NCBI GenBank assembly: GCA_964434255.1 | Contig: CAYSUL010000001.1 | Location: 181,695-245,694 of the forward strand | DNA: 64,000 bases | DNA from: an uncultured Candidatus Saccharibacteria bacterium | Lineage (GTDB): Bacteria; Patescibacteriota; Minisyncoccia; Phycocordibacterales; Phycocordibacteraceae | Direction: 5' to 3' | Shown here: positions 16,358-56,775 of the stretch, one piece after another | Layout: the number at the start of each line of letters is the position of its first letter | Numbering within the stretch: position 1 is the stretch's first letter | Translations under genes and position numbers: made by a program | Notes under the pieces: generated by a model | The model's input: only the letters and a program-made list of their open reading frames with translations | Databases searched by the model: none | Told to the model about the DNA's origin: nothing

Positions 16358-16831
16358 CTACTGGCTCACGCAGTGATTGTACGAAGTGGTCCATCCGGCG
16401 CAGCCGGTTAGGGTCGAGGGTTCGGACGTGCCAGGATCCTGGTTCAAGACGGCACAGACCGTAAAGCGTCCATTGTTGTCATTCTCGTTTGCATAGAAAT
16501 AGTCGCCGGTCTGGTTCGCATAGAACGGATCGAGCGGCATCTTGGAGATATACGTCGGGACGATATCCGACTGGAGGGCGGCGCCCATTCCGCTGGTTGG
16601 ATTGGAGACGTAGGTGCACCAGCCGGATGTGCGCGGTAGTGAGCCGGTGCTGTTGTAGTAGCTGTTTATCGACTTCACGAGCTGGCTCACATCGGAGCGC
16701 CTCCGGGCATCGTTCGCCTTGTTGCGAGCGACGTTAAGCGAGGAAAGCACCACCGACGAGAGGATACCGATAATAGCTATCACCACGAGGAGCTCGATGA
16801 GGGTGAAGCCGCGATTGGTTGAGTGTTCCAT
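16358..16831 (-). CDS. type IV pilin / pseudopilin (prepilin N-terminal methylation motif)
   Basis: 158 aa from the internal ATG (MEHSTNRG|FTLIELLVVIAIIGIL). Class-III signal peptide plus hydrophobic helix. Confidence 0.8.
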   Translation of the reverse strand: MEHSTNRGFTLIELLVVIAIIGILSSVVLSSLNVARNKANDARRRSDVSQLVKSINSYYNSTGSLPRTSGWCTYVSNPTSGMGAALQSDIVPTYISKMPLDPFYANQTGDYFYANENDNNGRFTVCAVLNQDPGTSEPSTLTGCAGWTTSYNHCVSQ

Positions 16832-16833
16832 AC

Positions 16834-17097
16834 CTATTGCTTGATGATGGCCGGATTGATAACGCTGGCATCGATAGGCGTGATGACGACTATCTCCTTC
16901 GGTTGCGTCTTGAACGCGATGAATACCGATGCGGCGAGCACCGTACCAAGCACGCCGAGCACCACCTTCTCCATCTTGCCTTCGTCCTTCTTGGGCCCTG
17001 GTGTTATGAGCTGCCCGAGCGGAAGACCCGCACGCTTCCCGTTCGACCGACGCATGAGCGCCGGATCCTTTTCGGAATCGAATACTACCTCGTCCAT
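16834..17097 (-). CDS. small membrane protein (start chosen at MDEVVFDSE; the ORF could extend to 17247)
   Basis: One TM segment (VVLGVLGTVLAASVFIAF). 2-nt gap to the pilin gene. GGAAG Shine-Dalgarno at the chosen start. Confidence 0.4.
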   Translation of the reverse strand: MDEVVFDSEKDPALMRRSNGKRAGLPLGQLITPGPKKDEGKMEKVVLGVLGTVLAASVFIAFKTQPKEIVVITPIDASVINPAIIKQ

Positions 17098-17187
17098 GTG
17101 GCTTCCAGTATATACGCACCGAGCCGTCTTTCCGTCTTTTCCCCACGGGTGTAGGGTGAAATCAGAGCCATAGTAGGGAGAAAACAG

Positions 17188-18932: not shown

Positions 18933-19001
18933 TTCGAAATGAAAACTCCCCCGTGGGAGTTAGGCACACTATATATAAAGGCCTATATAAATGCAAATTA
19001 T

Positions 19002-19442
19002 CTAGGCTTTGCCTGCTCCTTTCCTTCTCAGTCGCTCCGGAAGCTCAGAAGTACCTAGTAATAGGAGCGAGAGGAATCCATAAAGCACTGCAAGTAGGCC
19101 AGCCCACATACTCACATCATTAAGGGCAAAACCTGCAAATTTCATATGTGACAGAGCAAATAGAAGGGGTACGACCAGAATACCGCACCATAAAGAGAAG
19201 CGTGCCCATAGGCTATAAGTCCTACGAGTGGTAAAGAAGGCGAGAAGAGACGCGATAAGGAATGTAATGGAGAGGGGTAGACCTGGATCTCCTATCTCCA
19301 CTTCGTAAGGAGACCTACAAATTAAGCCTTGGGTATTCGTTAACACTTCATTGCACAGCCCGAACCATTCTGGCCATATGAGGTAAGAGGATAGGCCTGT
19401 CGCGAGAATCCCTACACCAATCAATACGTATCTGATGCTCAT
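19002..19442 (-). CDS. integral membrane protein (4 predicted TM segments)
   Basis: 146 aa and hydrophobic. First gene of the low-GC segment. Confidence 0.55.
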   Translation of the reverse strand: MSIRYVLIGVGILATGLSSYLIWPEWFGLCNEVLTNTQGLICRSPYEVEIGDPGLPLSITFLIASLLAFFTTRRTYSLWARFSLWCGILVVPLLFALSHMKFAGFALNDVSMWAGLLAVLYGFLSLLLLGTSELPERLRRKGAGKA

Positions 19443-19444
19443 GG

Positions 19445-22075
19445 CTATTTCTTACTATTCTCTAGCGCTCTGACACAGGTAGCAATAGCCGCAGCACGTT
19501 CTGGGGGGATAGCCTTGAGGTTTGCCTCTACATGCTTTCTTAGATTATTCACGAGGTTCTGGAACTTCTTGGCATCCCTTCCTTGATGTTCCATATTCGA
19601 CATGACGAGCGTGAGGTAGAGGCGAACGAAAAGGGTGCGGACACGACCTATCTCCTTCTTGCAGATACCTATAGCATCTTTGCGAGTGAGCTTATCGCTT
19701 ATATTTGCGTCTGTTGTTCCATCTCCATCTATGTCGAGCGATAGCTGGCTCACACCTGAGCCTGACACAGTAACAGTCGCCTGAGTTGAGGATCCAACGG
19801 GAAGTTTGCTGAATTCCCTAAACACCTCTCCGTTCTCATTGGCAAAAGTAAGATCGAATACTCCACTGCCAGTGCCACTAATCGCGATGTCGTAGGTACG
19901 ATCTGCGGGTAGTACTAGGTACTTTGCTTCCCCGCCAAGCTCGATACTACTTCCTGGAATTCCTTCACGAACATACTTAAGATCGTTGTTTGTATCATCG
20001 TAGCTGAAGATGCCTGTCTGATGTCCGTCACTATCTCTTGCGGCAATTATCGCAGGAGAATGCACCCCAACGATTACTTTTGACTCCGAACTTTCAGGCT
20101 TTGCTATAGGAAACAGATTTTCTTCAAACGAGACATCTAGCCCAAGCAGATTAGCGAGATAGGCATGCATATGAGCCGACTCAGTTATATTCTTATGTAT
20201 CCTCGTTTCACCGAATTGGTCATTTAGTTCCGCGAGATTGAAATAGACAGCCTTGCCTTGAAACACCGCGCTCCTGGTTAAGACCGTTTCATCTCCGTCA
20301 TCCGTAAGCTTTGGCGTGTACTCAATATACGTAGGGCATGAGAGCGAGAAGCAGGACATCTCTTTCGTCACATAGTCCGCGCCACTCATGGTCGACTGAC
20401 CCCAACCTGCTATTTCATACACCTGCACATCAAGAGCCGGTGTCCACGTATCGAGAATCGCATGCGTCGCCTTTGCTTTTGCGACGAGCGCGGAAGAGAG
20501 CGGAAGAGGCGTACCCGTGTCGCCTGCCGTTGGTGCCGGACGCGTTGCCGGATTATTCAGCGCGAAGCTCTCTGCTTCCGCGGCAGTATCAAGAGACGGA
20601 CCATATACATTTGTGAACGCCGTGGTCTTCGCTCCAGGAGCAAACGTTGCGATGGGTGCTGCAGCGTCCTCGAAGTACGCAGCGGAAGGGATAAGCGTAT
20701 ACGCCCCCGGAAATGTCGCCGCGACATCGCGTCTGACCGTTGATGGTATCCAGAACTGCAAGTCTATCTCCCGACCATGCAGCAGTGCTGACAATCCCTT
20801 TGGAGTACCGGTCTGGGGAGTAGCGATGAATATGACCCTGTCTACGAGCCCCGTCTTTCCTTCCGCTGCGAGCTTTACCATAAGCGCTTTTGCGAGAAGG
20901 CCGCCATTACTGTGCCCGATGATTGTTACCCTCCCACTCTTAGAGCTCGCGGCCAAGCGTTCGACCTCAGACACGAGATATTCGCGTGAGCCGTTTTCCT
21001 TGAGCGCACCGTCGCGCACGACATCTAGCACGTCGTACCGCCAATCGTACGAATATCCCTTCCAATCAGCTATCTTTCCTTCCTGCTTAAGCTCATCGAG
21101 GTAGCCCATGAACTTTCCATAGATGGTAGTGCTGTATGGGAGGTTCAAGACCGAATCAATGATGTCGCGCGTATAGACAGTGATTGGACTTGTTCCATCG
21201 GATCCAAGGGCCAACTTCTTCACATCGCTGGTTCCGATTGGCTCCCATAGCAGCTCTTCCCTTTCGCCTTCTTTCGTATACAAACGGCTTGTAAGGAAGC
21301 CAGGTAAGAAAAGTACATTCGACGCCCCGCTCACGACACCTTCAACCACCTCTATCTCAAGGAGGTCGTACATGACCGGAAGCTGAGGAGCACCATCCTC
21401 ATTCTCCTTGCCGTGCTCGATGAAATTCCTGAAGGGTTCAAGCGGGAATGACGCCACCGGACAAAGTTCTCCTTGAGGACCTGTGCATAAGTCAGCTGCG
21501 GTAAGTCCAGGGACGGTTCCTTCATCGGTTCGTTCATATGTCGCGCTAAGCGCGATGACGTATTTGCCGGGAGTATCGAAACGGACAGTAAGGTCAGGAG
21601 TCTCACCGTGCGAAACAGGCGTCGAAGCAATACGGGTACTTGAGCCCAATTCCCCCTGGAACACATCAAGTGTCAGGGTCGCGGATTCAAAGATAGGATT
21701 GAACGGAACTACATGGCCGCCATATGGAGCGAATGGGTCAACCGGATTAACTACATACGACCAGGAGAGATTCCCATCAACGCCAGTCTGAAGCTGCGTC
21801 GGCGCATCCGTACTCAGCGGAGTTCCGTTCCACGCAGCACTCATCTCGAACAGAGTGGCCGCTGCACGCATATGTTCTCTTCCCTCAAAGAAGGGATTCG
21901 GAATCACGAGAATGCTCCCATCTTCCTGAAGACAGCGCTGATTGAAATCAGTGTCATACACGCACGGTTCTTCGGGTGTCTGTGCGAAAACGTGAGCGGG
22001 AAATTGCGAGAACGCGGTCGCGAACAGTAATACAAAGGTCAGTGATTTTTCCATTGCCTGCATCGTAGCGGGCAA
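19445..22075 (-). CDS. large secreted protein with a central LCAT/PGAP1-like alpha/beta-hydrolase (lipase/acyltransferase) domain
   Basis: 876 aa. Signal peptide (MEKSLTFVLLFATAFSQFPAHVFAQ), YDWRYD motif plus nucleophile elbow IIGHSNGG, and Asp-rich DIDGDGTTD near the C-terminus. GC ~48-50%, below the flanking ~60%. Confidence 0.65.
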   Translation of the reverse strand: MPATMQAMEKSLTFVLLFATAFSQFPAHVFAQTPEEPCVYDTDFNQRCLQEDGSILVIPNPFFEGREHMRAAATLFEMSAAWNGTPLSTDAPTQLQTGVDGNLSWSYVVNPVDPFAPYGGHVVPFNPIFESATLTLDVFQGELGSSTRIASTPVSHGETPDLTVRFDTPGKYVIALSATYERTDEGTVPGLTAADLCTGPQGELCPVASFPLEPFRNFIEHGKENEDGAPQLPVMYDLLEIEVVEGVVSGASNVLFLPGFLTSRLYTKEGEREELLWEPIGTSDVKKLALGSDGTSPITVYTRDIIDSVLNLPYSTTIYGKFMGYLDELKQEGKIADWKGYSYDWRYDVLDVVRDGALKENGSREYLVSEVERLAASSKSGRVTIIGHSNGGLLAKALMVKLAAEGKTGLVDRVIFIATPQTGTPKGLSALLHGREIDLQFWIPSTVRRDVAATFPGAYTLIPSAAYFEDAAAPIATFAPGAKTTAFTNVYGPSLDTAAEAESFALNNPATRPAPTAGDTGTPLPLSSALVAKAKATHAILDTWTPALDVQVYEIAGWGQSTMSGADYVTKEMSCFSLSCPTYIEYTPKLTDDGDETVLTRSAVFQGKAVYFNLAELNDQFGETRIHKNITESAHMHAYLANLLGLDVSFEENLFPIAKPESSESKVIVGVHSPAIIAARDSDGHQTGIFSYDDTNNDLKYVREGIPGSSIELGGEAKYLVLPADRTYDIAISGTGSGVFDLTFANENGEVFREFSKLPVGSSTQATVTVSGSGVSQLSLDIDGDGTTDANISDKLTRKDAIGICKKEIGRVRTLFVRLYLTLVMSNMEHQGRDAKKFQNLVNNLRKHVEANLKAIPPERAAAIATCVRALENSKK

Positions 22076-22118
22076 AAGATAATGAAAAGATAAAATTTCC
22101 GGAGTTTTCGTCTCCCAC

Positions 22119-22140
22119 CTGTTGATAACTCCTCATATCC
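22119..22140 (-). promoter_or_regulatory. Conserved 22-nt motif (coding-strand GGATATGAGGAGTTATCAACAG), copy 1, upstream of the hydrolase gene
   Basis: 20/22 identity with copy 2 at 24008..24029. Contains the DnaA-box-like TTATCAACA. Confidence 0.4.
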
Positions 22141-22159
22141 TGACCTTCATTGTTAATAA

Positions 22160-22190
22160 AGAAGCCCCGCCGGTAAACCGACGGGGCTCA
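22160..22190 (-). terminator. Rho-independent terminator of the 22211..23830 gene
   Basis: agccccgcc-ggtaaacc-gacggggct hairpin. Confidence 0.55.
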
Positions 22191-22210
22191 AGGTTCTCTC
22201 GGGCGGGCCG

Positions 22211-23830
22211 CTAGGCCCGCTTCACGAACGTCAGGACGGACACGCCCTGGATGACCGGATGGAACGAGACGAGATGATCGACGCGCTCCACCTGGTAACC
22301 TTCGGCGATGAGCCTATCCTGCTCGTCGACGAAATCAGGAACGTTCGTCCACAACGTGCGGACGCCGAGAACAGCATCCGGTTGGCGCAGGATAGCGCTA
22401 CTTGGTGGCTCTTGTTTGGTCATGGCCATCAGAGGAGCGGTTTCGGGTGGCTCTACTCGCGCTTCAGACTCAACCGCGGGAGCGGGAGCTTCCGCCGGCT
22501 CTGCTGCTGCAACAAGTGGTGGCGTAGGTGCTTCAGGACGCTTCCGAGCGATGGAACCGTCCTTCTGCTTGGGCATCGTCGCCGTAAGCTCACGATAGAT
22601 ACTCCAAGCCTCAATGAGCGCTTTCATCTCCGCACTCTTTTCTTCACGCTTCGGAAGACCGAATAGCCCTTTCGCGTGCGTCGCGATCGTGCTCACGCCA
22701 CCGGTCGAGGCATGAACTGCCTTTGCGGCGAGGGTAACACTCCCCGCCGCAGCCAAAGCATCCAGCACCTCGATTCTCCGAACGCTAAGCTTGCGCGCTT
22801 TCATTGCCCGCTTGATACGAGCAACGACCGCTTCTCGCTCTGCGTCGGTGAAGAGCGAGACCTCCAGGTTTGGGGCAGGCGGAGCCAGTTCGCACAGCTC
22901 CACGATAGGTTCCGCGTCCAGAGGCGTCTCTTCGACGACTTTCGTGGACGAATCCGGCGGCGACGCTTCCGCGAGCTCGCGCCCGCGATAACGCGCCCAC
23001 GCACGGGCGAGCACGACTAACTCCTGCTTGGCTCCTTCCTTTCTTCCTTCGGCCTCGACAGTCGGGACCTTGAAGATCGCCTTCAGTTGCGAGAGACTCG
23101 CGCTTACGCCATTGGCTTCGACACCAAGCGCAGCGGCAATACGTGCCACTGTACCTTCCACGATCAGCGTGTCGAGGATGAGAGCCCTTCGCTCGGTGAT
23201 CGGCTTCCTGTTCATGATTTTCATGATGCGCGACAGAAGCGGGTCGGACCCTTCTGGGGCGGGCGGTTGCACCTCTTGCACTGGTTCAGCCAAGAGAACA
23301 TCCGAGCCTGCTTCTTCAGGCTCCGGAGCCTCGATGATGAGTCTCGGTTCGTCGACGGGCACTTCCCGCACCTCCTCCGGTTGTGGAGCCGCAGTGAGCT
23401 CATCAACGATTGCGCTCTTTGCCGTGGCAAGCGGAAGCGCTCTCTCTTCGTTCCCCAACCTTAAATCAGGGACGGCGACCTTCTCGGCGCTCAACTCGAG
23501 CGCATAAAGAAGGAACTCGGTATGTTCCTCATTGATCGGCCCTGGTTTTTCGTAGATGCGGTTCATGAGGATGGCCGCCGCCCGCTTCTCACCCATCGAC
23601 AGCTTCGTCGAGAGCTTCAGGCTGCGGAACAGCTTTTCCATGAGAAGCGGCAGACGAGCAACCTCAACCCTGAGGCTGCCCGCAATCTTCTGGTCGGAAA
23701 GACCAGCTGACAAGTCGATAAGCAGGGTGGAACTTTGTTCCGAGAGACCATCGATATGCCTGCCGATATTCTGACGGCTTATGGTCGGCGAGAAGACCTT
23801 ACCAGTGGGTGCTTGAACCAACGCAGACAT
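22211..23830 (-). CDS. protein with three tandem LuxR/GerE-type HTH repeats separated by Pro/Glu-rich linkers
   Basis: 540 aa from the ATG at 23830 (AAAGGGG Shine-Dalgarno). Repeats ITERRALILDTLIVEGTVARIAAALGVEANGVSASLSQLKAIFKV and SVRRIEVLDALAAAGSVTLAAKAVHASTGGVSTIATHAKGLFGL, with a weaker N-terminal copy. Confidence 0.55.
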   Translation of the reverse strand: MSALVQAPTGKVFSPTISRQNIGRHIDGLSEQSSTLLIDLSAGLSDQKIAGSLRVEVARLPLLMEKLFRSLKLSTKLSMGEKRAAAILMNRIYEKPGPINEEHTEFLLYALELSAEKVAVPDLRLGNEERALPLATAKSAIVDELTAAPQPEEVREVPVDEPRLIIEAPEPEEAGSDVLLAEPVQEVQPPAPEGSDPLLSRIMKIMNRKPITERRALILDTLIVEGTVARIAAALGVEANGVSASLSQLKAIFKVPTVEAEGRKEGAKQELVVLARAWARYRGRELAEASPPDSSTKVVEETPLDAEPIVELCELAPPAPNLEVSLFTDAEREAVVARIKRAMKARKLSVRRIEVLDALAAAGSVTLAAKAVHASTGGVSTIATHAKGLFGLPKREEKSAEMKALIEAWSIYRELTATMPKQKDGSIARKRPEAPTPPLVAAAEPAEAPAPAVESEARVEPPETAPLMAMTKQEPPSSAILRQPDAVLGVRTLWTNVPDFVDEQDRLIAEGYQVERVDHLVSFHPVIQGVSVLTFVKRA

Positions 23831-24007
23831 GTCATGACCCCTTTCGGCCTGATGATATTTATTATTGTGGGCGATTTGTACTCGGCATCTCGTGGGAGTA
23901 TGGACCAATCCTAAATGAAATCAAATCCGCCCTCGTGAGCATATTAGAACTCCTCGACAGCTCCTGCAGCCATATCACGGAATTCGATTCCTGCTTCTTT
24001 CGACACA

Positions 24008-24029
24008 TTTGTTGATAACTTTCATATCC
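24008..24029 (-). promoter_or_regulatory. Conserved motif copy 2 (coding-strand GGATATGAAAGTTATCAACAA), upstream of the LuxR-repeat gene
   Basis: See copy 1. Both copies sit ~20-30 nt beyond the terminator of the preceding gene. Confidence 0.4.
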
Positions 24030-24048
24030 AACACCGAGGCACTGAGAT

Positions 24049-24076
24049 ATGAAAATGCCCCGACAAGCCGGGGCAT
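24049..24076. terminator. Rho-independent terminator (aaaatgccccg-acaa-gccggggcatttt)
   Basis: Perfect stem with A/T runs on both sides. Follows the 24097..24993 gene. Confidence 0.65.
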
Positions 24077-24096
24077 TTTTATATCAGAACCGTTCG

Positions 24097-24993
24097 TTAG
24101 TCAGCAGCGGTCTTGAAGTCCTGAACGCTCGAAGTAGCAGTGTTGCCCGCCTTATCGGTCGCTACGACGATGAAGTAGTAGTCAGTGTCATCATTGAGAG
24201 TATCGAGAGCAAGCTCGTGCGTGCGCAAGAACCTCGCAACGGTCTCCTTCTCGGCATCTGCTAGGTCGACATCGTTATCGGTGCCATACCATACGACTGC
24301 TTTCGTACGCTCGTTGGTATTCCACGAGAGCGTTACGGAATCGTCCGTGATGTCATCGGTATCGATATCCGAAATGGCAGGTGCAGTCGTATCGCGGGTA
24401 GTGGTCGCAGTCGAGGTGCTATTCCTCCAATCGACTCCGAGCTTCTTAGCGATACCTTCTGGTATCTTCCCGCACGCAGAGAGGTCTATTGAAGCATTAC
24501 CGAGGCGCTTCTTAGCCTGGCCAGGAGCGATCAGCTTGCCCCACGCCTTGCACTTGAAGTCTGAATCGTCCGCAAGCGCGTTCAGGCGCGCGCGAGTCTT
24601 TGCACCAACAGCGACTTCGCCTTCGACACCGTGCTTCTTCTGGAACTTAGCGACGGCCTTGGCGGTGAGTGCGCCATAGAAGCCGGTCACAAGACCTTCG
24701 GGATAGATATCAGGGTCTGCTGCGAGTATTTCCTGGAGTGCTTTCACCTCTTCGCTCGTCATCCCCTGGCGAAGTTCACCCGCGAGCGCCATAGTCTCCC
24801 TGAGCTCGCTAACGGTTTCGCTATGCTTCTTCATAAGTTCAGCGAGCTGGTCCTGGAGCTTCTTTATCTGCTCGAGGTACGTCTGCATCTGCACACTTGT
24901 CGTGGAGGTTACCGTCTCCGCGAACGCTGCGGTCGGCGCAATGCCTACGACAAGCGAGAGCGCGATAGTGAGTGCGGCTAGTTTCTTTACCAT
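24097..24993 (-). CDS. secreted protein: peptidoglycan-binding (PG_binding_1-like) domain plus C-terminal FN3/beta-sandwich-like domain
   Basis: 298 aa. Signal peptide, LQEILAADPDIYPEGLVTGFYGALTAKAVAKFQKKHGV and DSVTLSWNT...VVWYGTD. Confidence 0.55.
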   Translation of the reverse strand: MVKKLAALTIALSLVVGIAPTAAFAETVTSTTSVQMQTYLEQIKKLQDQLAELMKKHSETVSELRETMALAGELRQGMTSEEVKALQEILAADPDIYPEGLVTGFYGALTAKAVAKFQKKHGVEGEVAVGAKTRARLNALADDSDFKCKAWGKLIAPGQAKKRLGNASIDLSACGKIPEGIAKKLGVDWRNSTSTATTTRDTTAPAISDIDTDDITDDSVTLSWNTNERTKAVVWYGTDNDVDLADAEKETVARFLRTHELALDTLNDDTDYYFIVVATDKAGNTATSSVQDFKTAAD

Positions 24994-25112
24994 AAATGTA
25001 TTGAGTCAATAGTTATGCGTTGTAATAGCAGGAATCGAATACACCGCTTATACAGTGTATACCGTCTATGAAGACGGGTGGGACTGAACCCACTTACCGC
25101 GAAATCTTTCCC

Positions 25113-25211
25113 TTATCTACTCCGTTCCGGAATGGCTCTATGCCTACCCTGTTCCACTCCTATGAAATACCCGATGGCGAGAAGGGTGAGGACAATAAGC
25201 AACTTCTTCAT
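25113..25211 (-). CDS. 32-aa hydrophobic peptide (MKKLLIVLTLLAIGYFIGVEQGRHRAIPERSR)
   Basis: Below the ORF-track size cutoff. AGGGAG Shine-Dalgarno 1 nt before the ATG. Followed by two hairpins. Confidence 0.25.
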   Translation of the reverse strand: MKKLLIVLTLLAIGYFIGVEQGRHRAIPERSR

Positions 25212-25251
25212 ACTCCCTACAACCACCGCCTTGCCCTGCTCGTTTCGCTAG

Positions 25252-26004
25252 CTAGTCGAATTCGAGATAGAGGGGTGCATGGTCGGACACTTCGTCCGGC
25301 AATACCTTGAAATCCTTCACTTCGATCTCGCCGCTTACGAACGTGTAGTCGGCGAATTTCTCAGGCTTCGTATAGTGACTGGTGCGAGTCGAGGTCACGC
25401 CATATTCCTTTATGAGGTTACGCAGACCTGCTGCTTCGATTCGGCTTACGCTCTCGGTATCCGGCCGAAGATTGAAATCTCCCATTAAAATAACTCGTTC
25501 TTTCCGTGCAACAACGAAGCCTGCGATGCGATCCGATTGCTCGAGTCGCTCGGCGCAGTCAGCCTTTCCCTGGCCGTTCCATAGCCCGTGGACATTCATG
25601 ATGGTGAGTGGCCCGCCAGAAGTAAGAACGGTTACATATTGCAGGTTCCGAGCGTGATTGCCGTATTCATCCGGTGAGATGAATCCCGCTTCCTTATATA
25701 CGTAAATCTCCCCCTCTTCCTCGACCGCCAGTTCTTTCCGTACATACATGGCTAGTCCGTAATAGTCACTGAAGTGGGGCCGGAAATACACCCGATGATC
25801 GGGCAGCGCCTCCTCGATATCCTGCAGCAACCGCGTGTTCCTCTTCGCTAATTCAAAATCGCTTTTCTCGCCCAACATTTCTTCTCCCCCATTCCATATC
25901 TCTTGAAGGCAAAAAATATCCGCATCCGCATGCTTCTTGAAGAATGCAAGGAGTTCGCTCATTCCCGCCTCGCCTCCCCACGTATTGAGTGAGATGACCT
26001 TCAT
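25252..26004 (-). CDS. endonuclease/exonuclease/phosphatase (EEP) family protein
   Basis: 250 aa. N-terminal KVISLNTWGGE and C-terminal SDHAPL motif. Confidence 0.7.
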   Translation of the reverse strand: MKVISLNTWGGEAGMSELLAFFKKHADADIFCLQEIWNGGEEMLGEKSDFELAKRNTRLLQDIEEALPDHRVYFRPHFSDYYGLAMYVRKELAVEEEGEIYVYKEAGFISPDEYGNHARNLQYVTVLTSGGPLTIMNVHGLWNGQGKADCAERLEQSDRIAGFVVARKERVILMGDFNLRPDTESVSRIEAAGLRNLIKEYGVTSTRTSHYTKPEKFADYTFVSGEIEVKDFKVLPDEVSDHAPLYLEFD

Positions 26005-26007
26005 GCG

Positions 26008-26637
26008 CTACACCCCAATAAGAAGCCCGAATATCCAGCTGATGAAGTCGTAGAACGGACCAGCGAAGAAGTAGGTAAAGATGAACAGTATGGCGATGAG
26101 CGTGAAGATGCTGCCCGCGCGCATGCGATCCTCGAACTCACGCATCTGCATGCCGATCTTGTACGGCAGGATACCGCGCAGCACCGTGAACCCATCGAGC
26201 GGAGGTATAGGAATGAGGTTGAAGATGCCGAGGGAGAGGTTCGTGAGGGTCACGAGCGCTGCCAGATCGCCGAACTCGCCGAACCCGTTCGCATACGCAT
26301 AGCGCGCAACGAGTGCGAAGATGACCGCGAGCAGGAGATTGGTGGCGACGCCCGCGACCGCGACGATGGCCTCGCCCCACCGCTGGTTCTTCAGGTTGTA
26401 TGGGTTGTATGGAACAGGCTTCGCCCATCCGAAGAGGATACCTGCGCCCGTCATCACGAGCAGGGCCGGAAGCACGACGGAGCCTACCGGATCGACGTGG
26501 GACGCCGGATTGAGCGTGAGACGCCCTTCGAGCTTTGCCGTAGGGTCTCCGAGGGCATAGGCGGCATATCCATGGGCCACCTCATGGATGATGATCGAGA
26601 GGACGAGGATGATGATGCCGAAGATGAGTATGTCCAT
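26008..26637 (-). CDS. site-2 protease family (peptidase M50) membrane metalloprotease
   Basis: 209 aa. HEVAHG zinc motif in a TM helix and multiple TM segments. Confidence 0.75.
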   Translation of the reverse strand: MDILIFGIIILVLSIIIHEVAHGYAAYALGDPTAKLEGRLTLNPASHVDPVGSVVLPALLVMTGAGILFGWAKPVPYNPYNLKNQRWGEAIVAVAGVATNLLLAVIFALVARYAYANGFGEFGDLAALVTLTNLSLGIFNLIPIPPLDGFTVLRGILPYKIGMQMREFEDRMRAGSIFTLIAILFIFTYFFAGPFYDFISWIFGLLIGV

Positions 26638-26680
26638 GGATTTGCGGAGGTAAGCCTCACTATGCTAGCATGCGGGGACT

Positions 26681-26923
26681 ATGGCACGTAAATGCGCAGT
26701 GACCGGCAAGAGCACGCAAGTAGGCGGGCGGTATTCCAACCGTACCCGTGCTACCCAGTTCAACCCGACCGGCAAGGTCCGCCGCAGCGCGAACCTCCAG
26801 AAGCGCCGCGTCTTCGTCGCTGAGCTCGGCAAGAACGTCCTCATCGATGTCTCCGCCAAGGGCATGCGCCACATCAAGAAGAACGGTGCCTTCGCCACGC
26901 TCACGAAAGCAGGCGTTATCTAA
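26681..26923 (+). CDS. rpmB: 50S ribosomal protein L28
   Basis: 80 aa. MARKCAVTGK...KRRVF...VSAKGMR pattern. Confidence 0.85.
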   Translation: MARKCAVTGKSTQVGGRYSNRTRATQFNPTGKVRRSANLQKRRVFVAELGKNVLIDVSAKGMRHIKKNGAFATLTKAGVI

Positions 26924-26937
26924 TTGGCGCTCGCAAG

Positions 26938-26965
26938 AATCGCCCGGTCAGCTGACCGGGCGATT
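26938..26965. terminator. Rho-independent terminator (atcgcccggtc-agc-tgaccgggcgat-tttc)
   Basis: Follows rpmB (+). Also follows the 26995..27282 gene (-). Confidence 0.65.
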
Positions 26966-26994
26966 TTCTTTTGGAGCGGCTACTAGCTCAGGGC

Positions 26995-27282
26995 CTATGC
27001 GGCCTGACGATCGAGACGAGCGAGCCTCGTATCGATGAGCTTGCCTACCGCCCGAAGGACACGAGACCTGTCCCCGCGAAGAGCCCGTCTCGAGAACGTC
27101 TCGTTGGTGCGGAGCCGAAACGCCTCCGTCTGAGGGGTGGCCGGCAGCTTTCTCCTGCCGACCATGGCCTCGATACAGCTTTTCGTGTCCACGAGCTGGC
27201 TGCGGTAGTTCGGGTCGTACTGGCCGCCGAAGAGGCTGGTGAAAATGTTCCCCGCCATCAGCGTGATGAGGTCGTTGGGCAT
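26995..27282 (-). CDS. hypothetical protein
   Basis: 95 aa. More protein-like than the overlapping longer ORF 26948..27391. Confidence 0.35.
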   Translation of the reverse strand: MPNDLITLMAGNIFTSLFGGQYDPNYRSQLVDTKSCIEAMVGRRKLPATPQTEAFRLRTNETFSRRALRGDRSRVLRAVGKLIDTRLARLDRQAA

Positions 27283-27341
27283 CTTGAATCCTCCTGGAAC
27301 GGTCCCGTTCGCACTGTACCACTACTTTCCTGTCCGTAAAG

Positions 27342-28202
27342 TCACTTGTGCACCATTGTCCTCCCGTCGCTCTTGAAGATGATTGTTCCATCTTCCACCG
27401 TGGAGGCTACCGAAGCCCCCGACGCACGTACACGCTCCAGAACCTCCTCGTGCGGATGGCCGTATGAGTTGTCCTTCCCCGCCGAGATGACCACGACCGA
27501 GGGCGTGACGGCATCGAGCCACGCTGCACTGGTCGACGTGTGCGAGCCATGATGGCCGGCCTTGAGCACATCGCTATCCAACTCCCCGCCAAGCGCGATG
27601 AGGTAGTCCTCGACCGAGGACGGTGCATCGCCCGTGAACATAAAAGAGGTATTGCCGTATACGAGCCGGACCACGACGGAGCCGCTATTGGTCTCCGCCT
27701 TCGACACGTCACGGTCGGGATATAGCACGTCCGCATACACGCTCTCTCCAAGATGGATACGCATACCCTTCCGTGCGAGAATGCTGACCGCGCCCAGCTC
27801 ATCCTCCACGGCCGCTCCGAGCCGCTCCGCCTGGCTCGTCCCATGCTCTATACCGGGCGAAAGATAATAGGAGACGCGATAGCGGTTGAGCACGTCCGGC
27901 AGCCCGCCGATATGGTCGGCGTCCGGATGCGTCGCGAGCACCATATCGATGGAACGGTCGAGCGGGCTCATGACCCGAGGAAGCTCACGTACGACGGCGC
28001 GGTCACGTCCTCCATCTATAAGCAGCTGAACGCCCTCCGGGCTCTCGATGAGGATGGCATCGCCCTGCCCCACATCGAGGAACGACACCGTGAGCAGCTC
28101 TGACGTTGGCTCGAATATGGCGTATATGGCTGCTGTATTCACCGCCATGAGCGCGAATACGATGAACGTGGCTATGGCCGGCTTGGTACGCAAGAAGTTC
28201 AT
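27342..28202 (-). CDS. ComEC/Rec2-type metallo-beta-lactamase domain protein (stand-alone, N-terminal TM anchor)
   Basis: 286 aa from internal Met (MNFLRTKPAIATFIVFALMAV). VSFLDVGQGDAILIE and HPDADHIGG motifs and C-terminal HHGSHTS. Confidence 0.75.
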   Translation of the reverse strand: MNFLRTKPAIATFIVFALMAVNTAAIYAIFEPTSELLTVSFLDVGQGDAILIESPEGVQLLIDGGRDRAVVRELPRVMSPLDRSIDMVLATHPDADHIGGLPDVLNRYRVSYYLSPGIEHGTSQAERLGAAVEDELGAVSILARKGMRIHLGESVYADVLYPDRDVSKAETNSGSVVVRLVYGNTSFMFTGDAPSSVEDYLIALGGELDSDVLKAGHHGSHTSTSAAWLDAVTPSVVVISAGKDNSYGHPHEEVLERVRASGASVASTVEDGTIIFKSDGRTMVHK

Positions 28203-28236
28203 GAAGCGTTGATAGGACCAGTATAGTCCGGCGTAA

Positions 28237-28725
28237 ATGGTACTGTGGATACATACAGAGCGTATGTTCCTCAAGCGCCTATCTAATCGCATGCTTGCTC
28301 CCTTCCAGCTCCTGTACTGGCGCGTCGCCATGCCGGAAGCCGAGGGAGCAAAGGTCCTCATCGAGCACAACGGGAACTTCCTTCTCATCCGCGAGACGTA
28401 CGGGCCCAAGCACTGGACGCTTCCTGGCGGGCGGAGTCGCAAGGACGAGGAACCGACCGAGACCGCTAAACGCAAGGTTCGCGAGGAGGTGGGCATCGAG
28501 CTCACGAAGCTCGTCACGCTCGGCTCCTATTTCCATACCCGGCAGCATAAGAAGGATGTCATCTGCGCGTACTTCGCCCAGGTCGATACGCAGGCCTTCC
28601 AGATAAACCCGAACACCATAGGCGAAGCCCACTGGTTCAGCGTCGAGGAGCTCGCAAGTCTCGAGCAATCGGAATCAGTCGACGACGTGCTTGAGCTCTA
28701 CCACAAATACAAGGCTGAAAAGTAA
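28237..28725 (+). CDS. NUDIX hydrolase
   Basis: 162 aa. Nudix box GGRSRKDEEPTETAKRKVREEVGIE. Confidence 0.8.
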   Translation: MVLWIHTERMFLKRLSNRMLAPFQLLYWRVAMPEAEGAKVLIEHNGNFLLIRETYGPKHWTLPGGRSRKDEEPTETAKRKVREEVGIELTKLVTLGSYFHTRQHKKDVICAYFAQVDTQAFQINPNTIGEAHWFSVEELASLEQSESVDDVLELYHKYKAEK

Positions 28726-28752
28726 GACCCTTCCGCCGGAACGGAAGGGTCT

Positions 28753-29241
28753 CTATGCTGCGAAAGGCTCGAACACCGGCGACTGGAGGAGTTCGCTCGC
28801 GTTGTCGTTTTGATAGACCTGGAGATTGAAGCGCTCCCCAGCCAGCACGTTCGGGATCCACTCCTTGTCGGACGCGAGCATCCGATGGAACGGAAGCTTG
28901 TCTTTCGAATGCCACCACACCGGGCTCGCCCACATATCCTGCGTATCGGACGGCTCACCGCGGAATGATGTGACGAGATAGACATAGACGCGCCAGACGC
29001 TCGCCACTCCGTTATGGAAGGTGATGACCGCCCGTAGGTCCTCGTCCGTCACATCGATAGCGAGTCCCACTTCCTCCTGCGTTTCGCGAACGACGCATTC
29101 GTTCGTTGTCTCCCCCGGGTCCACCTTCCCGCCCGGACCATTCAGGGTGTCGCCGCCTATTTCCGCTGTGCGCTTTTTGAGTCCAAGGAGGAGCTGGTCC
29201 CCGCGGACGATGAGCGCGAGCGTCGCCTGCTTCATATCCAT
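28753..29241 (-). CDS. NUDIX hydrolase (MutT-like)
   Basis: Nudix box GGKVDPGETTNECVVRETQEEVGL. Start set at MDMKQATLALIV. Confidence 0.8.
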   Translation of the reverse strand: MDMKQATLALIVRGDQLLLGLKKRTAEIGGDTLNGPGGKVDPGETTNECVVRETQEEVGLAIDVTDEDLRAVITFHNGVASVWRVYVYLVTSFRGEPSDTQDMWASPVWWHSKDKLPFHRMLASDKEWIPNVLAGERFNLQVYQNDNASELLQSPVFEPFAA

Positions 29242-29345
29242 AGGGTACTCCTTTCCTGGTCCATTCATACCCCTAAAGCCACACCTCATCAACCGCTCAC
29301 GGAAAAGCGCTATACTCTCCGTACTTGGAAGCTAACCGAATATCC

Positions 29346-29942
29346 ATGACCTATACCGCACGCACGTTTTCCCTACCCGAGCTCTCCGGCCTCTCGAAGA
29401 AGCAGATGGACGTCCACCTCGCCCTCTACGAAGGGTACGTGAAGCATGTGAACGTCATCCTCGACACCATCAAGCGGTTGCGGGATGAGGACGCTGAGGC
29501 GAACGCATTCGTGATGAACGAGCTCCGCCGTCGCCTCGGATTCGAGTTCGATGGCATGCGCATGCACGAGTACTATTTCGAGCAGCTCGAGAAGGGACCA
29601 AGCCAAGCCGCGGAGGATTCTCCGCTCGCAAATGCAGCGTCCGAGAAGTACGGCAACTGGGCGAGCTTCATAACGCACCTGAAGGAAGTCGCGGGCACGC
29701 GCGGCATCGGCTGGGTCGTCACGTACTTCGATCCACGGATAAATTCTCTCCATACCGCCTTCGTCGGCGACCATGAGCTCGGGCAGCTCGCTGGCCTTCC
29801 TATCATCCTCGCTATCGACCTATGGGAGCATGCGTACATGGTCGACTACGTTCCGGCGGAGAAGAAGACCTATGTCGATGCATTCCTCGCGAGCGTGGAT
29901 TGGGATCTCGTGAACGAACGCTTCGCGAACGCAGCGACGTAG
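29346..29942 (+). CDS. sodA: Fe/Mn superoxide dismutase family protein
   Basis: C-terminal DLWEHAYMVDY and IGWVVTYF. N-terminal DVH...KHVN ligand pattern. ATG at 29346 (track start 29325 is TTG). Confidence 0.7.
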   Translation: MTYTARTFSLPELSGLSKKQMDVHLALYEGYVKHVNVILDTIKRLRDEDAEANAFVMNELRRRLGFEFDGMRMHEYYFEQLEKGPSQAAEDSPLANAASEKYGNWASFITHLKEVAGTRGIGWVVTYFDPRINSLHTAFVGDHELGQLAGLPIILAIDLWEHAYMVDYVPAEKKTYVDAFLASVDWDLVNERFANAAT

Positions 29943-29948
29943 AACAAG

Positions 29949-31424
29949 TCAGATAGAAGGAGCGTCTGCGACAGATATCGCGGGCGCTTTTTCTTTGAGC
30001 GCGCGCATACCGAATGCCAGGAGCAGGTACAGAAGAATCACTATCCAGAACGGGAACAGCGGAATGGTCAGGCTCGCGAACGGGAGCGCTGCACTGAGCT
30101 CTGCGACTTCGACCAAGTACCAGAGCAGAAGAAGCGCAGGAAGCCCAGCAATGGTCGCGAAGACGGGCATGAGGATACCGACGAATCCCGCGATCGCGGA
30201 GAAGAGCATTGCGAGCGGAACGACCGGAAGCGCGAGCACGTTCGCCGGAAGCGCGACGAGCGAGAGGTTCCCCGTCTGGTACAGAAGAAGCGGAAGCACG
30301 AAGAGCTGCGCTGCAATAGTAGTCGCGATGATATCGCGCAGGAATGCATTCCGGATGCGCACGAGGTGCGGCTCGATGATGGGGCTTCCTATGATAAGTC
30401 CGAGCGTGGCGACGAATGAGAATTGGAATCCTGGGTCATGCACGAGGAGAAGCGGGTTCCATAAAAGCATGATGACGAGCACGAAGACGAGAGCGCGTAA
30501 TGCGTCGTAGGTGCGACCGCTCGCGCGCGCAAATAATCCCAAGCCCGCCATGATGCCCGCGCGCGCTGCGGACGCCCCGGCACCTGCCGCAAGCACGAAG
30601 AGAAGTATCGTGAACCCGGCGAGCACTATCGCCACCCGCTTCCGGAGGAAGCTGAACGCGCGCAACATCGCCTCGGCGATTACCATCACGTTGTATCCCG
30701 ACAGGACGACGATGGGTAGGAGACCCGCGATGGTGAACGCCTCGAGCAGCTCCTTCCCGAGCCCCTGCTTCCCTCCCGTGATTATCCCGACGGCGAGGCT
30801 CGCGTAGGGTTCCGGAAGTGCGTTGGATAATCCATGCACGAAGAGATGCTTCGTTTCGTAGAGGTACCTACGGAGGCTAGGCTGGTCATCGAGCAGTCGT
30901 ATCTTCGCGAAGCCTATGATGCCGAAGACGCCGTCCTTGGCGAGGAAGCTATCGTACCGGAAGGTGCGCCCGCCATCGGTCACGAAGGGTTCAGGACGCT
31001 CGAGCGTTCCGCGCACCTCAAGGACCTGCCCATGCGAGAGCTCGGGGTACAAAGGGGCGACCACGAGCATGCGCGTGCGCTCTCCTTCGTGTTCCACGGC
31101 GAGCGTGACACGCTGCGTGGTCTCCCGAATGTCGGGGTCGCCCTCAATCCTTCCGGTAAGAACAACCTTGGTATCGAAGAGCGGGAGGAATGCATCGGGA
31201 GCTGCGACAGGAGCGACAGCTACGCGCACCATTCCAACGAGAAGCCCAAGAAGGCAGAGGGCTGATAGGACATAGGCTTCGCTCCTTTTGAGGAGCGATA
31301 AAAAAGATAAAGAAAAGATGATGGACGCCAACAGCGCCATCACTTCCCAGGATATCAAGAGTAGCGAAGCCAGGGCGATCCCCAGAATGAACGATAAAAT
31401 CGCAAAGATAAGCCGCCTGGGCAC
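29949..31424 (-). CDS. comEC: ComEC/Rec2 competence membrane protein, N-terminal part only (DUF4131 + competence channel domain, no MBL domain)
   Basis: 491 aa and polytopic. Typical ComEC N-terminal hairpin and OB region. Ends before any MBL motif. Confidence 0.75.
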   Translation of the reverse strand: MPRRLIFAILSFILGIALASLLLISWEVMALLASIIFSLSFLSLLKRSEAYVLSALCLLGLLVGMVRVAVAPVAAPDAFLPLFDTKVVLTGRIEGDPDIRETTQRVTLAVEHEGERTRMLVVAPLYPELSHGQVLEVRGTLERPEPFVTDGGRTFRYDSFLAKDGVFGIIGFAKIRLLDDQPSLRRYLYETKHLFVHGLSNALPEPYASLAVGIITGGKQGLGKELLEAFTIAGLLPIVVLSGYNVMVIAEAMLRAFSFLRKRVAIVLAGFTILLFVLAAGAGASAARAGIMAGLGLFARASGRTYDALRALVFVLVIMLLWNPLLLVHDPGFQFSFVATLGLIIGSPIIEPHLVRIRNAFLRDIIATTIAAQLFVLPLLLYQTGNLSLVALPANVLALPVVPLAMLFSAIAGFVGILMPVFATIAGLPALLLLWYLVEVAELSAALPFASLTIPLFPFWIVILLYLLLAFGMRALKEKAPAISVADAPSI

Positions 31425-31480
31425 ACGGCTATTCTAGGAAACAAATATGAAGAAAAGCTGGAGGAAGTATGAAACCGGTT

Positions 31481-31903
31481 TTATCGACCCCTATCCATCG
31501 CGATATTGGCGAGTTCGTCCGCGTCCTTGTTCTTCTCCCGGTACACATGCTCGAATGAAACCTCTCCAAAGGAGCGCGCGAGGAGATTCTTGAGTACCAG
31601 ATGCCGTGGAACAAGATTAGGGTGCTTCACCTTGTAGTTGCCCTTGAGCTGCTCGATGACGAGCTTGGAGTCCATACGGATGGTAAGCGGGGTCGACTTC
31701 AAGATCTCGAGAGGGTATTCCTTGGAAAGCGCGGTGAGTCCGCGAATGACCGCCTCGTACTCCGCGATGTTGTTGGTCGCAACGCCGAGATAATCAGAGA
31801 CTTCGACCACACGCTTCCCAAGCGAATCGAAGACGACCGAGCCCGCACCTGCAGGCCCCGGGTTCCCGCGAGCACCGCCATCGGCATAGAGCGTGAAATG
31901 CAT
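31481..31903 (-). CDS. rnhA: ribonuclease HI
   Basis: 140 aa from MHFTLYADGGARGNPGPAGAG. DEDD catalytic residues. Confidence 0.85.
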   Translation of the reverse strand: MHFTLYADGGARGNPGPAGAGSVVFDSLGKRVVEVSDYLGVATNNIAEYEAVIRGLTALSKEYPLEILKSTPLTIRMDSKLVIEQLKGNYKVKHPNLVPRHLVLKNLLARSFGEVSFEHVYREKNKDADELANIAMDRGR

Positions 31904-32144
31904 GGGAGGAGTATACCAAGTAATGAAGGCCGCCCGCGTCTCCGCGGGCGGTTCTCTCACAGGAAGGGACAGCCGTCTTCTTCGGGCAGCGATTCCAATT
32001 TCTCGCGACCCCCTTCCCGTATTGATGTGATCCACTCACTCAGGTCGTAGAGCGCAGCGGCCACCATTTCACCGATATGGGTGAGTTGTCGTTCGAGCCA
32101 TTGCATAGGAACCTCCTCCCACTGACTTCATAGAACGCCCGCTG

Positions 32145-33866
32145 CTACCGGATGTCAATGATGCGCAATCGCACCGGCTGACCGCGCGAGAACGTGTCGC
32201 GCTCGAGATGAACGAGCAGCGATGTGCGACCACCCACGAGGAGCGCATCGCACGAGCTTCCGAGCTCGCGCCTCGCATAGAAAGAAATCGCTTCGATGGT
32301 GTCGCTCCCGAACTCGTCGCGCAGCAGCTTCACGCGCAAGTGCTCCCCCGCCTTCCCGAACCACGAGACCTCCGAGAGCTCTATGTGCGAGAGCGCGAAC
32401 GCTGGCTTGCTGTTGCCCATACCGAACGGCGCGAACCGCTCGAGCGAGAGCAGCGTCTTTACCGACACCTGTTCGGGAGTGAGGTGCGCATCCGCTCTCG
32501 ACTCCTCTGCGTCATGCTTCGGAAGCGTAGCGAGCGCTTCCACGAGACGCGCCTCGAGGTCGAATACCTTGTCGGGCGCAACCGAGAATCCGCCCGAGGC
32601 CGCGTGCCCACCGAACTCGATGAATGCATCGGTCGCCGCGTGCATGAGCTCGTTCACGCTCGTCTTCCCTCCCGCCCTACACGAACCCTTGAGCGTCTCG
32701 TTCCCTTCACGTCCCCAGAGGAATACCGGACGACTGTATTCTTCCGCGATACCGTTCGCGACAAGTCCCAGAAGTCCCGGACGCCAATCCGGGTCGCCCA
32801 TGACGATGACTGCAGGAAGCTCTCCTTCAAGCTTCCGTTTCTCGATGCGTTCATGCACCGCCTTCGTCGTTGCGCCTGCGACCGCACGCCTGGAACGATT
32901 CGTCGCTTCGAGCAGCTTCGCGAGCTCGTCCGCTTCGCTCTCATCCTCCGTCGTGAAGAGACGGAACGCATCGCGCGGGTCCCCCATCCTTGAAGCTGCA
33001 TTCACCCTCGGCGCGATCATGAAACCGACGTCGTCCTCCGTGATGCGCTTCTGGTCCACGCGCGCGACCTTGCATAATCGCTGGAGACCGAGGCGCGGTG
33101 ACTTCCGCATCACCATGAGCCCGTATTTCGCGATAACCCGGTTCTCTCCACGAAGGGGCACCATGTCAGCGATGGTCGAGAGCCCTGCCATATCAAGGAG
33201 CCACTTCTCCCATCCAGGCGCGATATCCTCCCTTCCAGCGAAACCATGCTGCAAGGTCGCGCACGCGAGCTTCCAGGCGATGCCTCCGCCGCACAGGTCC
33301 AGGAATGGATACGTCTCGTCCTCACGTGCCTTCGGATCCACGACCGCATACGCAGGAGGAAGATCACCCGAGGGTAGATGGTGGTCCGTGACGATGACCT
33401 CCATGCCGAGCTCATTCGCTCGCGCGACAGCACTGTTGTCGACGATGCCCACATCCACCGTGACGATGAGCTTCGTTCCCTCCCTAGCGAGCTTCTCGAT
33501 GCCGGGGATATTCATCCCGTACCCTTCCAAGTGACGATGCGGGATATAGTTCGTGAAATCAGCGCCCGCCTTCTTGAGGAAGTCATGGAGGACGACACCG
33601 CCCGGAATACCATCGCAGTCATAGTCGCTCCACACCGTTACCCGTTCCTTCTCGCTTATCGCACGCGCAAGACGTTCGGCTGCTTTGGGCATATCCGTCA
33701 TGAGCATCGGGTCATGGATATGCTCATCGTATGAGGGCGAGAGGAACGCCTCGGCTTCTTCGGCTGTCGTTATCCCCCTCCTGGCAAGGAGCGATGCCGT
33801 GAAATCATCGTATGCGCGGAGCGTATTGCGCGACTTCTCATCAAGGGGGTCATGGAGCGGGAACAT
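32145..33866 (-). CDS. recJ: single-stranded-DNA-specific exonuclease RecJ
   Basis: DHH motifs (VIVTDHH, DYDCDG). Start set at MFPLHDPL to avoid overlap with the divergent HIT gene. Confidence 0.85.
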   Translation of the reverse strand: MFPLHDPLDEKSRNTLRAYDDFTASLLARRGITTAEEAEAFLSPSYDEHIHDPMLMTDMPKAAERLARAISEKERVTVWSDYDCDGIPGGVVLHDFLKKAGADFTNYIPHRHLEGYGMNIPGIEKLAREGTKLIVTVDVGIVDNSAVARANELGMEVIVTDHHLPSGDLPPAYAVVDPKAREDETYPFLDLCGGGIAWKLACATLQHGFAGREDIAPGWEKWLLDMAGLSTIADMVPLRGENRVIAKYGLMVMRKSPRLGLQRLCKVARVDQKRITEDDVGFMIAPRVNAASRMGDPRDAFRLFTTEDESEADELAKLLEATNRSRRAVAGATTKAVHERIEKRKLEGELPAVIVMGDPDWRPGLLGLVANGIAEEYSRPVFLWGREGNETLKGSCRAGGKTSVNELMHAATDAFIEFGGHAASGGFSVAPDKVFDLEARLVEALATLPKHDAEESRADAHLTPEQVSVKTLLSLERFAPFGMGNSKPAFALSHIELSEVSWFGKAGEHLRVKLLRDEFGSDTIEAISFYARRELGSSCDALLVGGRTSLLVHLERDTFSRGQPVRLRIIDIR

Positions 33867-44032: not shown

Positions 44033-44059
44033 GAAAAAATTCTAGCATGCAAAAGACTT

Positions 44060-44094
44060 CGGGCCGGACTCTTCTTTCGAAGAAGTCCGGCCCG
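44060..44094 (-). terminator. Strong 16-bp-stem hairpin between the small membrane gene and pilC (attenuator or terminator)
   Basis: cgggccggacttcttc-tttcg-aagaagtccggcccg. Confidence 0.35.
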
Positions 44095-44101
44095 TGCACG
44101 C

Positions 44102-44431: not shown

Positions 44432-44520
44432 TTCCCTTCCTCCGGCTGCGCCTCTCCGATTCTTCGGAGTTCATACGCAGCTCTGCGGCAGTTATACCAC
44501 CACCCTCGCGAAAAGGAAGG

Positions 44521-54936: not shown

Positions 54937-55094
54937 AGTAAATAAGCCATTTATAATCGTTCGCCCGGTACCTACTACCGACATTACACCAAAAGTAGGT
55001 GGAAAAGCAATGAAGACGATTTTGATGGACTAAAGACTAAGACGTGGCGGGTGAATATTGCTTTCGTAGGCCTAGACCTTAGTGAATTAGAGTG

Positions 55095-55165: not shown

Positions 55166-55235
55166 TTCGCCAAAGAGAATACCATAGCCAGCGCATGAGC
55201 TGTATTTTTGAACGGCTCCGGTGTAGCGTTCATAT

Positions 55236-56303: not shown

Positions 56304-56304
56304 T

Positions 56305-56734: not shown

Positions 56735-56775
56735 TTCGCTCGGAATACTAACACAATCGCTATCTCTTTTTCTAG

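Follow-up and report, generated by a model that had tools for sequence, protein, structure and literature searches.

An orphan protein with three tandem helix-turn-helix modules, predicted from a Patescibacterial chromosome segment, belongs to a very small family

Transcription regulators of the LuxR family carry a helix-turn-helix (HTH) at the C-terminus together with a receiver, autoinducer-binding or ATPase domain, or consist of a stand-alone GerE domain of ~75 amino acids (aa), and regulators of the LuxR and LysR types normally need a homodimer. Single-chain DNA binders with several HTHs are also known, including the AraC/XylS-type proteins MarA/Rob with two HTHs and c-Myb with R1R2R3. Genomes of Patescibacteria (candidate phyla radiation, CPR) are tiny and encode few regulators that can be recognised, and a large share of their proteins lacks annotation. 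Here we analysed a 64,000-nucleotide stretch of contig CAYSUL010000001.1 (positions 181,695 to 245,694, assembly GCA_964434255.1) from an uncultured Candidatus Saccharibacteria bacterium, called the window below, and describe in it an orphan gene whose product, the window protein, joins three HTH modules and a new C-terminal domain (CTD) through linkers predicted to be disordered. None of the LuxR-family arrangements was found in this protein by Pfam or NCBIfam.

An original prediction, made from the letters alone, had placed a 540-aa protein at 22211-23830; the coordinates held, and the length was corrected to 539 aa plus the stop codon. The parts of the gene are listed here with their net charge, isoelectric point (pI) and predicted local distance difference test (pLDDT) score from an AlphaFold2 model built on the 8-sequence family alignment.

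22211..23830, minus strand: orphan multi-HTH protein gene, a complete coding sequence of 539 aa plus stop according to the open reading frame (ORF) list and translation
23495..23779, minus strand (aa 18-112): module 1, R1-type LuxR-like HTH; pLDDT 83-92, charge +1 (near-neutral)
23246..23494, minus strand (aa 113-195): linker 1, Pro/Glu/Ala-rich and acidic, net charge -13; mostly predicted disordered
22982..23245, minus strand (aa 196-283): module 2, second copy of the R3-type HTH; basic, +6, pI 10.3, pLDDT 71-89
22850..22981, minus strand (aa 284-327): linker 2, Pro/Glu/Ala-rich and acidic, net charge -8; predicted disordered
22577..22849, minus strand (aa 328-418): module 3, R3-type HTH; basic, +6, pI 10.1, pLDDT 81-92
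22385..22576, minus strand (aa 419-482): linker 3, Pro/Ala/Glu-rich, net charge -1; predicted disordered
22214..22384, minus strand (aa 483-539, 57 aa): C-terminal beta-alpha-beta-beta domain, the most conserved part of the family

The pLDDT reached 81-92 across most of aa 20-110, 200-280 and 330-410 and fell below 50 at aa 114-130, 151-193, 287-323 and 419-482. All three modules were modelled as helical HTH units and not as disordered chain, which is what the original prediction had proposed to check. Each unit comprised an N-terminal helix, three HTH helices, a loop of 7-9 residues and a long fourth helix, and no beta-hairpin wing was predicted; in module 1 the helices lay at aa 19-27, 31-41, 46-53, 57-70, 79-94 and 101-110. 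The repeat length of ~45 aa proposed earlier had to be revised, as the modules span ~90 aa when the extra N-terminal helix and the long fourth helix are counted with the HTH core of ~45 aa. Module 3 terminated in a conserved helix (...EAWxxYRE), and its residues I339, L356, D357, A369, F390, P393, E401, L405, A408, W409 and R413 were invariant in the family alignment. The Pro/Glu/Ala-rich acidic linkers described from the sequence were confirmed for linkers 1 and 2, for which composition gave a pI of 4.05, while linker 3 was near-neutral in the window protein and strongly acidic in homologues (-11 to -24). Linker 1 was ~45 aa longer than in other homologues and held a lone predicted helix at aa 128-146.

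No receiver, ligand-binding, transmembrane or signal-peptide feature was found in the window protein, in agreement with the earlier statement that receiver and ligand-binding domains are lacking. The protein is modelled as a cytoplasmic "beads-on-a-string" chain, with three independently folded HTH modules on linkers predicted to be disordered. It resembles MarA/Rob and c-Myb in carrying several HTHs per polypeptide, an arrangement by which composite sites could be read and homodimerisation might no longer be needed. Unlike in those proteins, where the HTHs are joined rigidly or by short linkers, the modules here are separated by predicted disordered linkers of 44-83 residues, two linkers being acidic, and no sequence or specific fold relationship to MarA/Rob or c-Myb was found.

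The repeats were not detected in a BLASTP self-comparison of the window protein and became visible with profiles. A hidden Markov model (HMM) of module 3 (R3) from six other homologues scored module 2 of the window protein at 56.2 bits (independent E-value 4.6e-19) and its own module 3 at 50.7 bits, and an R2-type HMM, built from module 2 of the six core homologues, gave ~0 bits anywhere in the protein. With hhalign, the R1 and R2 types were related (88.5%, E 2.7e-6), and the relations of R2 to R3 (28.8%) and R1 to R3 (5.6%) were weak. Three architectures were distinguished.

R1, R2, R3 and CTD: most family members
R1, R3', R3 and CTD: the lineage of the window
R3', R3 and CTD: homologue P0007, which has no module 1

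Judged by these profiles, modules 2 and 3 of the window protein are duplicates of the second HTH type and module 1 is of another type. The three tandem HTH modules of the original prediction were therefore retained, but not as equivalent copies, with module 1 being R1-type and modules 2 and 3 R3-type.

For assignment of the HTH type, the Pfam GerE model (PF00196) had been suggested as a check on each repeat, and its curated threshold was not reached: the full protein scored 12.9 bits (E=0.087, aa 211-251) against a gathering threshold of 23.5 bits, the modules scanned one by one gave no GerE match, and the best score among family members was 15.9 bits. The best Pfam match of the window protein was the LysR-type model HTH_1 (PF00126) with 24.2 bits against a cut-off of 26.6 bits. 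Isolated modules 2 and 3 scored 15.3 and 18.5 bits with HTH_1, module 1 alone matched nothing in Pfam, and the homologue P0006 exceeded the cut-off (30.9 bits, profile positions 2-44 of 60). A LysR substrate-binding domain was not found by Pfam or NCBIfam; NCBIfam equivalog models reached 13-16 bits against cut-offs of 288-500, and NCBIfam returned nothing meaningful for the window protein. Sigma70_r2 and Sigma70_r4 gave no match at E<=10 in the window protein, and the sigma neighbour in locus L005 was detected normally.

Profiles of the module types were then compared by hhalign with E. coli K-12 reference sets of LuxR-type (n=9: DctR, GadE, YhjB, EvgA, MatA, PdeL, NarL, RcsB, UhpA) and LysR-type proteins (n=7: RcdB, DsdC, YahB, CynR, HdfR, IlvY, OxyR), with the following probabilities, which are to be read with the caution due to a small, self-built LuxR-type set.

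Module-1 type: LuxR-type 94.6% (E 6.9e-8) with the window sequence, 79.7% without it; LysR-type <1%
R2-type (six core homologues): LuxR-type 62.6%; LysR-type 1.9%
R3-type: LuxR-type 89.1-92.6%; LysR-type 88.6-94.9%
Reversed-sequence controls: LuxR-type <0.5%; LysR-type <0.5%
CTD control: LuxR-type 0.2%; LysR-type 0.2%

The two reference sets matched each other at 88.7% across just 25 HTH-core columns. In a Foldseek search of the PDB with the 539-aa query, the list was dominated by NarL/FixJ/LuxR-type DNA-binding domains (probability 0.93-1.00), with no E-value significant. The top match was the DosR C-terminal domain (template-modelling (TM) score 0.84, root-mean-square deviation (rmsd) 1.8 Å), and VraR, LiaR, ComA, NarL, StyR and FixJ also appeared; TM scores to the target for these NarL/FixJ-type matches of the 8-sequence model were 0.72-0.84, with rmsd 1.8-3 Å and probability 0.98-1.00, all at E of at least 0.34 and without a report of which module was aligned. 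LysR-type DNA-binding domains fitted less well (TM 0.5-0.68, rmsd 4-8 Å). Searches of PDB sequences with family profiles gave only sub-threshold matches, which were enriched in RhlR, DesR, ChrA, NarL, GerE, ComA, FixJ and EvgA as well as LysR-family proteins in the expected register; IRF4, ERp29 and PAI-2, also sub-threshold, were judged to be chance matches.

These results, which support the original interpretation in part, identify the modules as HTHs that resemble the LuxR type at the level of remote homology and of modelled fold. By profile comparison module 1 appears LuxR-like, and modules 2 and 3 appear equally LuxR-like and LysR-like. The earlier LuxR/GerE label is borne out as remote homology by hhalign (80-95% for module 1 and 87-93% for the module-3 type), and the top Foldseek matches, though not significant, point the same way; Pfam GerE does not support it, and the R3-type is equally LysR-like. 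With NarL/FixJ domains the modules appear to share the helical core, and they have the same register L-S/T-x-R-x-x-x-L ... G ... I-A ... S-x-x-T-V ... K-L-G-I/V. They differ in the extra N-terminal helix and in a longer fourth helix (16-20 residues) after the loop, and the protein differs from NarL/FixJ regulators in having three modules per chain instead of one at the C-terminus, and no sensor domain. Likeness to the LysR type lies in the pattern A-A-x-x-L-x-(V/T)-(S/T)-x-x-x-V-S of modules 2 and 3. Unlike in LysR-type proteins, the HTH occurs in two internal copies instead of one at the N-terminus, the wing is missing from the model, where the loop of module 3 has just 7 residues, and module 1 lacks LysR likeness.

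The short CTD was described in the original prediction as unrelated to the repeats, and we find the same. Modelled alone it reached a pLDDT of 91.4 and a predicted TM score (pTM) of 0.72, and its mean column identity in the family alignment was 68%. It had no Pfam match and no significant Foldseek match (E of at least 0.22 in PDB and at least 7.6e-3 in BFVD). The weak top matches were ACT-like regulatory domains, an Alba-like plant protein and DUF1737- or Cse60-like phage proteins; small beta-alpha-beta-beta domains such as DUF1737, Cse60 or DUF4177-like phage proteins and ACT-like half-domains have the same topology and size (TM 0.52-0.65), a likeness that is non-significant throughout (all E of at least 7.6e-3). 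No further ORF of the window or of the fetched loci contained the domain, nor did phmmer, at its sensitivity, show it in another architecture among 1.84 billion cluster representatives.

Relatives of the protein were few, in support of the earlier remark that its architecture is unusual. Word-indexed searches with the full protein and with the family alignment yielded only P0001, a 99%-identical protein on a Hainich groundwater contig (site H51, 0.1 µm filter), perhaps because low-complexity words from the linkers filled the list of candidates, and the same kind of search with the CTD alignment yielded nothing. Exhaustive phmmer over the 1.84 billion representatives recovered just seven true relatives (P0002-P0008, 31-36% identity); an 877-aa repeat protein, P0009 (E=5.5e-4), was rejected as spurious. 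Six of the seven share a module 1 that carries a GWRP motif, a module 2, a module 3 that ends in AWRLYRE, a long acidic linker and a conserved CTD of ~60 aa, P0007 being the one without module 1. We also used a degenerate DNA pattern derived from the CTD invariants as a genome probe, which matched the window once (0 expected). It matched two of 185,579 GTDB species genomes, a "Patescibacteria group bacterium" metagenome-assembled genome (MAG) and a "Candidatus Paceibacterota" MAG, and three of 241 million metagenome records, none of which added a new sequence. A literature search gave nothing relevant. The family is real, very small and Patescibacterial where named genomes are available, and it was found only among a narrow range of ultra-small bacteria from groundwater.

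An ortholog 86% identical to the window protein is encoded in the Patescibacteria MAG JAZKIU01 (locus L008), with the same M50 / Exo_endo_phos / PG_binding_1 synteny. Against this ortholog the ratio of non-synonymous to synonymous substitution rates (dN/dS) was 0.38 across the gene; the CTD stood lowest at 0.10, the modules ranged over 0.30-0.41 and the linkers over 0.42-0.61. The gene is real and under purifying selection.

Taken at a probability of about 0.5, the reading we prefer is that the protein is a multivalent, possibly oligomeric, putative DNA-binding protein, acting as a lineage-specific global regulator or as a nucleoid-associated protein that bridges DNA. The multivalent DNA-binding or scaffolding role suggested in the original prediction stays an inference. 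The basic modules 2 and 3 would bind DNA as an intramolecular pair and, since they share one chain, may stand in for the homodimer of LuxR- and LysR-type regulators. The CTD would oligomerise the protein and so raise its valency, the acidic linkers might act as flexible spacers or electrostatic autoinhibitors, and the near-neutral module 1 could serve contact with a partner protein. Several observations weigh against this. In the R3-type module, the putative recognition helices differ from homologue to homologue and are rather hydrophobic, and the invariant R3 residues sit in the fold core and the fourth helix (AW..YR). Most homologues have neutral or acidic modules 1 and 2, the window protein stays under both Pfam thresholds, GerE and HTH_1, and the full-length model had a pTM of only 0.30 with no confident packing between domains. 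Oligomerisation by the CTD is pure inference because no significant fold match was obtained.

The poorly conserved recognition helices, set beside a conserved fourth helix and CTD, and the neutral or acidic modules 1 and 2 of most homologues, with a linker 3 charge down to -24, would suit the main rival explanation, in which the HTH-derived modules make protein contacts and the protein is an adaptor associated with RNA polymerase (RNAP) or a sigma factor, its acidic disordered segments mimicking nucleic acid. Possible analogues are region 1.1 of sigma-70 and the delta subunit of Firmicute RNAP, in which an HTH-like domain is followed by an acidic tail. In lineage L005/L006 the family gene lies directly downstream of a gene for a 679-aa sigma-70 family protein, but this adjacency was seen in only one lineage among those examined, and the window protein has two strongly basic modules, 2 and 3; we regard the adaptor as unlikely. 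The sigma-70 family protein itself carries a long charged N-terminal extension and is encoded directly upstream of P0004 (L005 4721-6760; L006 743-2782).

We also considered a lineage-specific nucleoid-organising or RNAP-associated protein of ultra-small Patescibacteria, in which HTHs tethered by acidic linkers and multimerised by the CTD would bridge or condense DNA or compete with it, as a new chromatin-like class evolving by module duplication and loss; this we regard as distinctly unlikely. Should multivalent DNA binding hold, an uncultivated clade would have in this protein a candidate for a global regulator or nucleoid protein, and the protein would be a natural case of tandem modules in one chain replacing dimerisation of a regulator. 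In this family, familiar HTH parts have been recombined in Patescibacteria into a protein of several modules, rich in linkers, that lacks a sensor and carries a new CTD. Practical impact is limited, as the family occurs in very few genomes.

The gene has transcription signals of its own, which were read from the sequence.

23897..23924, minus strand: sigma-70-type promoter, TTGATT (23924-23919), 16-nt spacer, CATACT (23902-23897)
24051..24076, minus strand: intrinsic terminator of the upstream PG_binding_1 gene, ATGCCCCG-GCTTGT-CGGGGCAT followed by TTTTC
22162..22189, minus strand: intrinsic terminator right after the target stop codon, with a 12-pair stem, 9 pairs of it G-C

The start codon is likely the ATG at 23830, which is preceded by the ribosome-binding site GAAAGGGG. 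This ATG was favoured over a TTG at 23908 because homologues begin with MSA, the ribosome-binding site precedes the ATG and the TTG sits within the promoter spacer. A TTGnnT-N16-(C/T)ATAnT element was found ~65-75 nt 5' of the start codon in all nine orthologous loci examined (the window and L002, L004, L005, L007, L008, L010, L011 and L013). It is often lengthened to AGCATACTCC and is kept across orthologs with just ~30-45% protein identity. The upstream 8-mer CATACTCC, first considered as an operator, was rejected as such: it corresponds to the -10 element of a promoter of the sigma-70-like kind, and its 5 copies in the window against 2.7 expected are no enrichment. Further copies of this 8-mer, CATAMTCC, occur at window positions 325, 13548, 25209 and 59609, and it may be the general -10 consensus of the lineage.

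The terminator upstream is kept in L008. With strong terminators on both sides, the gene is probably transcribed alone, as a monocistronic unit of a Patescibacteria (Paceibacterota) chromosome. Its site between a secreted lipase and a peptidoglycan-binding gene, pointed out in the original prediction, was confirmed as to position: an LCAT-like secreted lipase gene lies immediately downstream in the window, and a PG_binding_1 gene stands 0.3-2.5 kb upstream in four lineages (window/L008, L002, L005 and L010). Such placement would fit a local transcription regulator of the adjoining cell-envelope genes. Against that explanation, the gene is bracketed by terminators and its neighbours vary between lineages, the downstream genes being MazG-like, MntP, SDR or LCAT, so that the link to the lipase and PG_binding_1 genes is one of position only. 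The PG_binding_1 neighbours share just a domain of ~40-75 aa and are not orthologous, a second PG_binding_1 gene elsewhere in the window being equally similar, for which reason an operon partnership was rejected. In addition, a strain whose target gene is 98.7% identical carries in place of the lipase a variant of 60% identity. We hold local regulation of the envelope genes to be very unlikely.

The two distinct secreted PG_binding_1 proteins of the window are encoded on the minus strand at 54022-54984 and 24097-24993, and the latter, which adjoins the target, also has an FN3 / purple-acid-phosphatase-N-like domain. The strain just mentioned is represented by Hainich contig L001, whose 98.7% nucleotide identity extends over window 21885-33830 and collapses just beyond the terminator of the target. 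There the LCAT-like lipase (19445-22075, minus strand) shows 60% protein identity and a 146-aa membrane protein (19002-19442, minus strand) 45%, and the guanine-cytosine (GC) content falls to 0.527 in window 18944-21885. By appearance this segment is a recombined cassette for surface or secreted proteins that varies between strains.

The family gene also evolves faster than its neighbours, with P0002, P0004 and P0005 being 41-47% identical and their adjacent PG_binding_1 proteins 62-73%. Together with weak PHROG matches to a terminase small subunit (E=0.012) and a D5-like regulator (E=0.018), this could mark the protein as part of a mobile element or phage, or as what remains of one, for instance a small-terminase-like protein, the DNA-binding region of a transposase or a multi-HTH replication initiator. 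However, tblastn searches of 50,697 phage and 72,556 plasmid records returned no match, and PADLOC gave none. The gene is single-copy in the window and in every locus searched, and has housekeeping synteny on chromosomal contigs of 0.3-0.67 Mb; neither an integrase nor repeats adjoin it, the only integrase-family gene of the window being ~36 kb away. A mobile origin is on these grounds extremely unlikely.

The window as a whole is an ordinary Patescibacterial chromosome segment, encoding elongation factor G (EF-G), L28, NusA, RNase Y, a CCA-adding enzyme, PilB- and PilC-like proteins, a XerC/D-like recombinase and four tRNAs. The tRNA genes (Gly-TCC, Pro-TGG, Gly-GCC, Arg-TCG) are clustered at 55094-56847 on the minus strand and adjoin the genes for the CCA-adding enzyme (56907-58370) and a trypsin-like protease (55236-56303). 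At 56 to 62 kb, where the GC content is lower (0.51-0.53), lie a second Exo_endo_phos gene and the XerC/D-like tyrosine recombinase gene (59723-60685). Type IV pilus genes of the PilC-like (T2SSF) and PilB-like (T2SSE) kinds are found at 42815-46317 (minus strand). A pilin-like protein (16358-17146, minus strand) has its N_methyl motif ~110 residues into the ORF as listed, and the true start of this pilin is therefore probably downstream.

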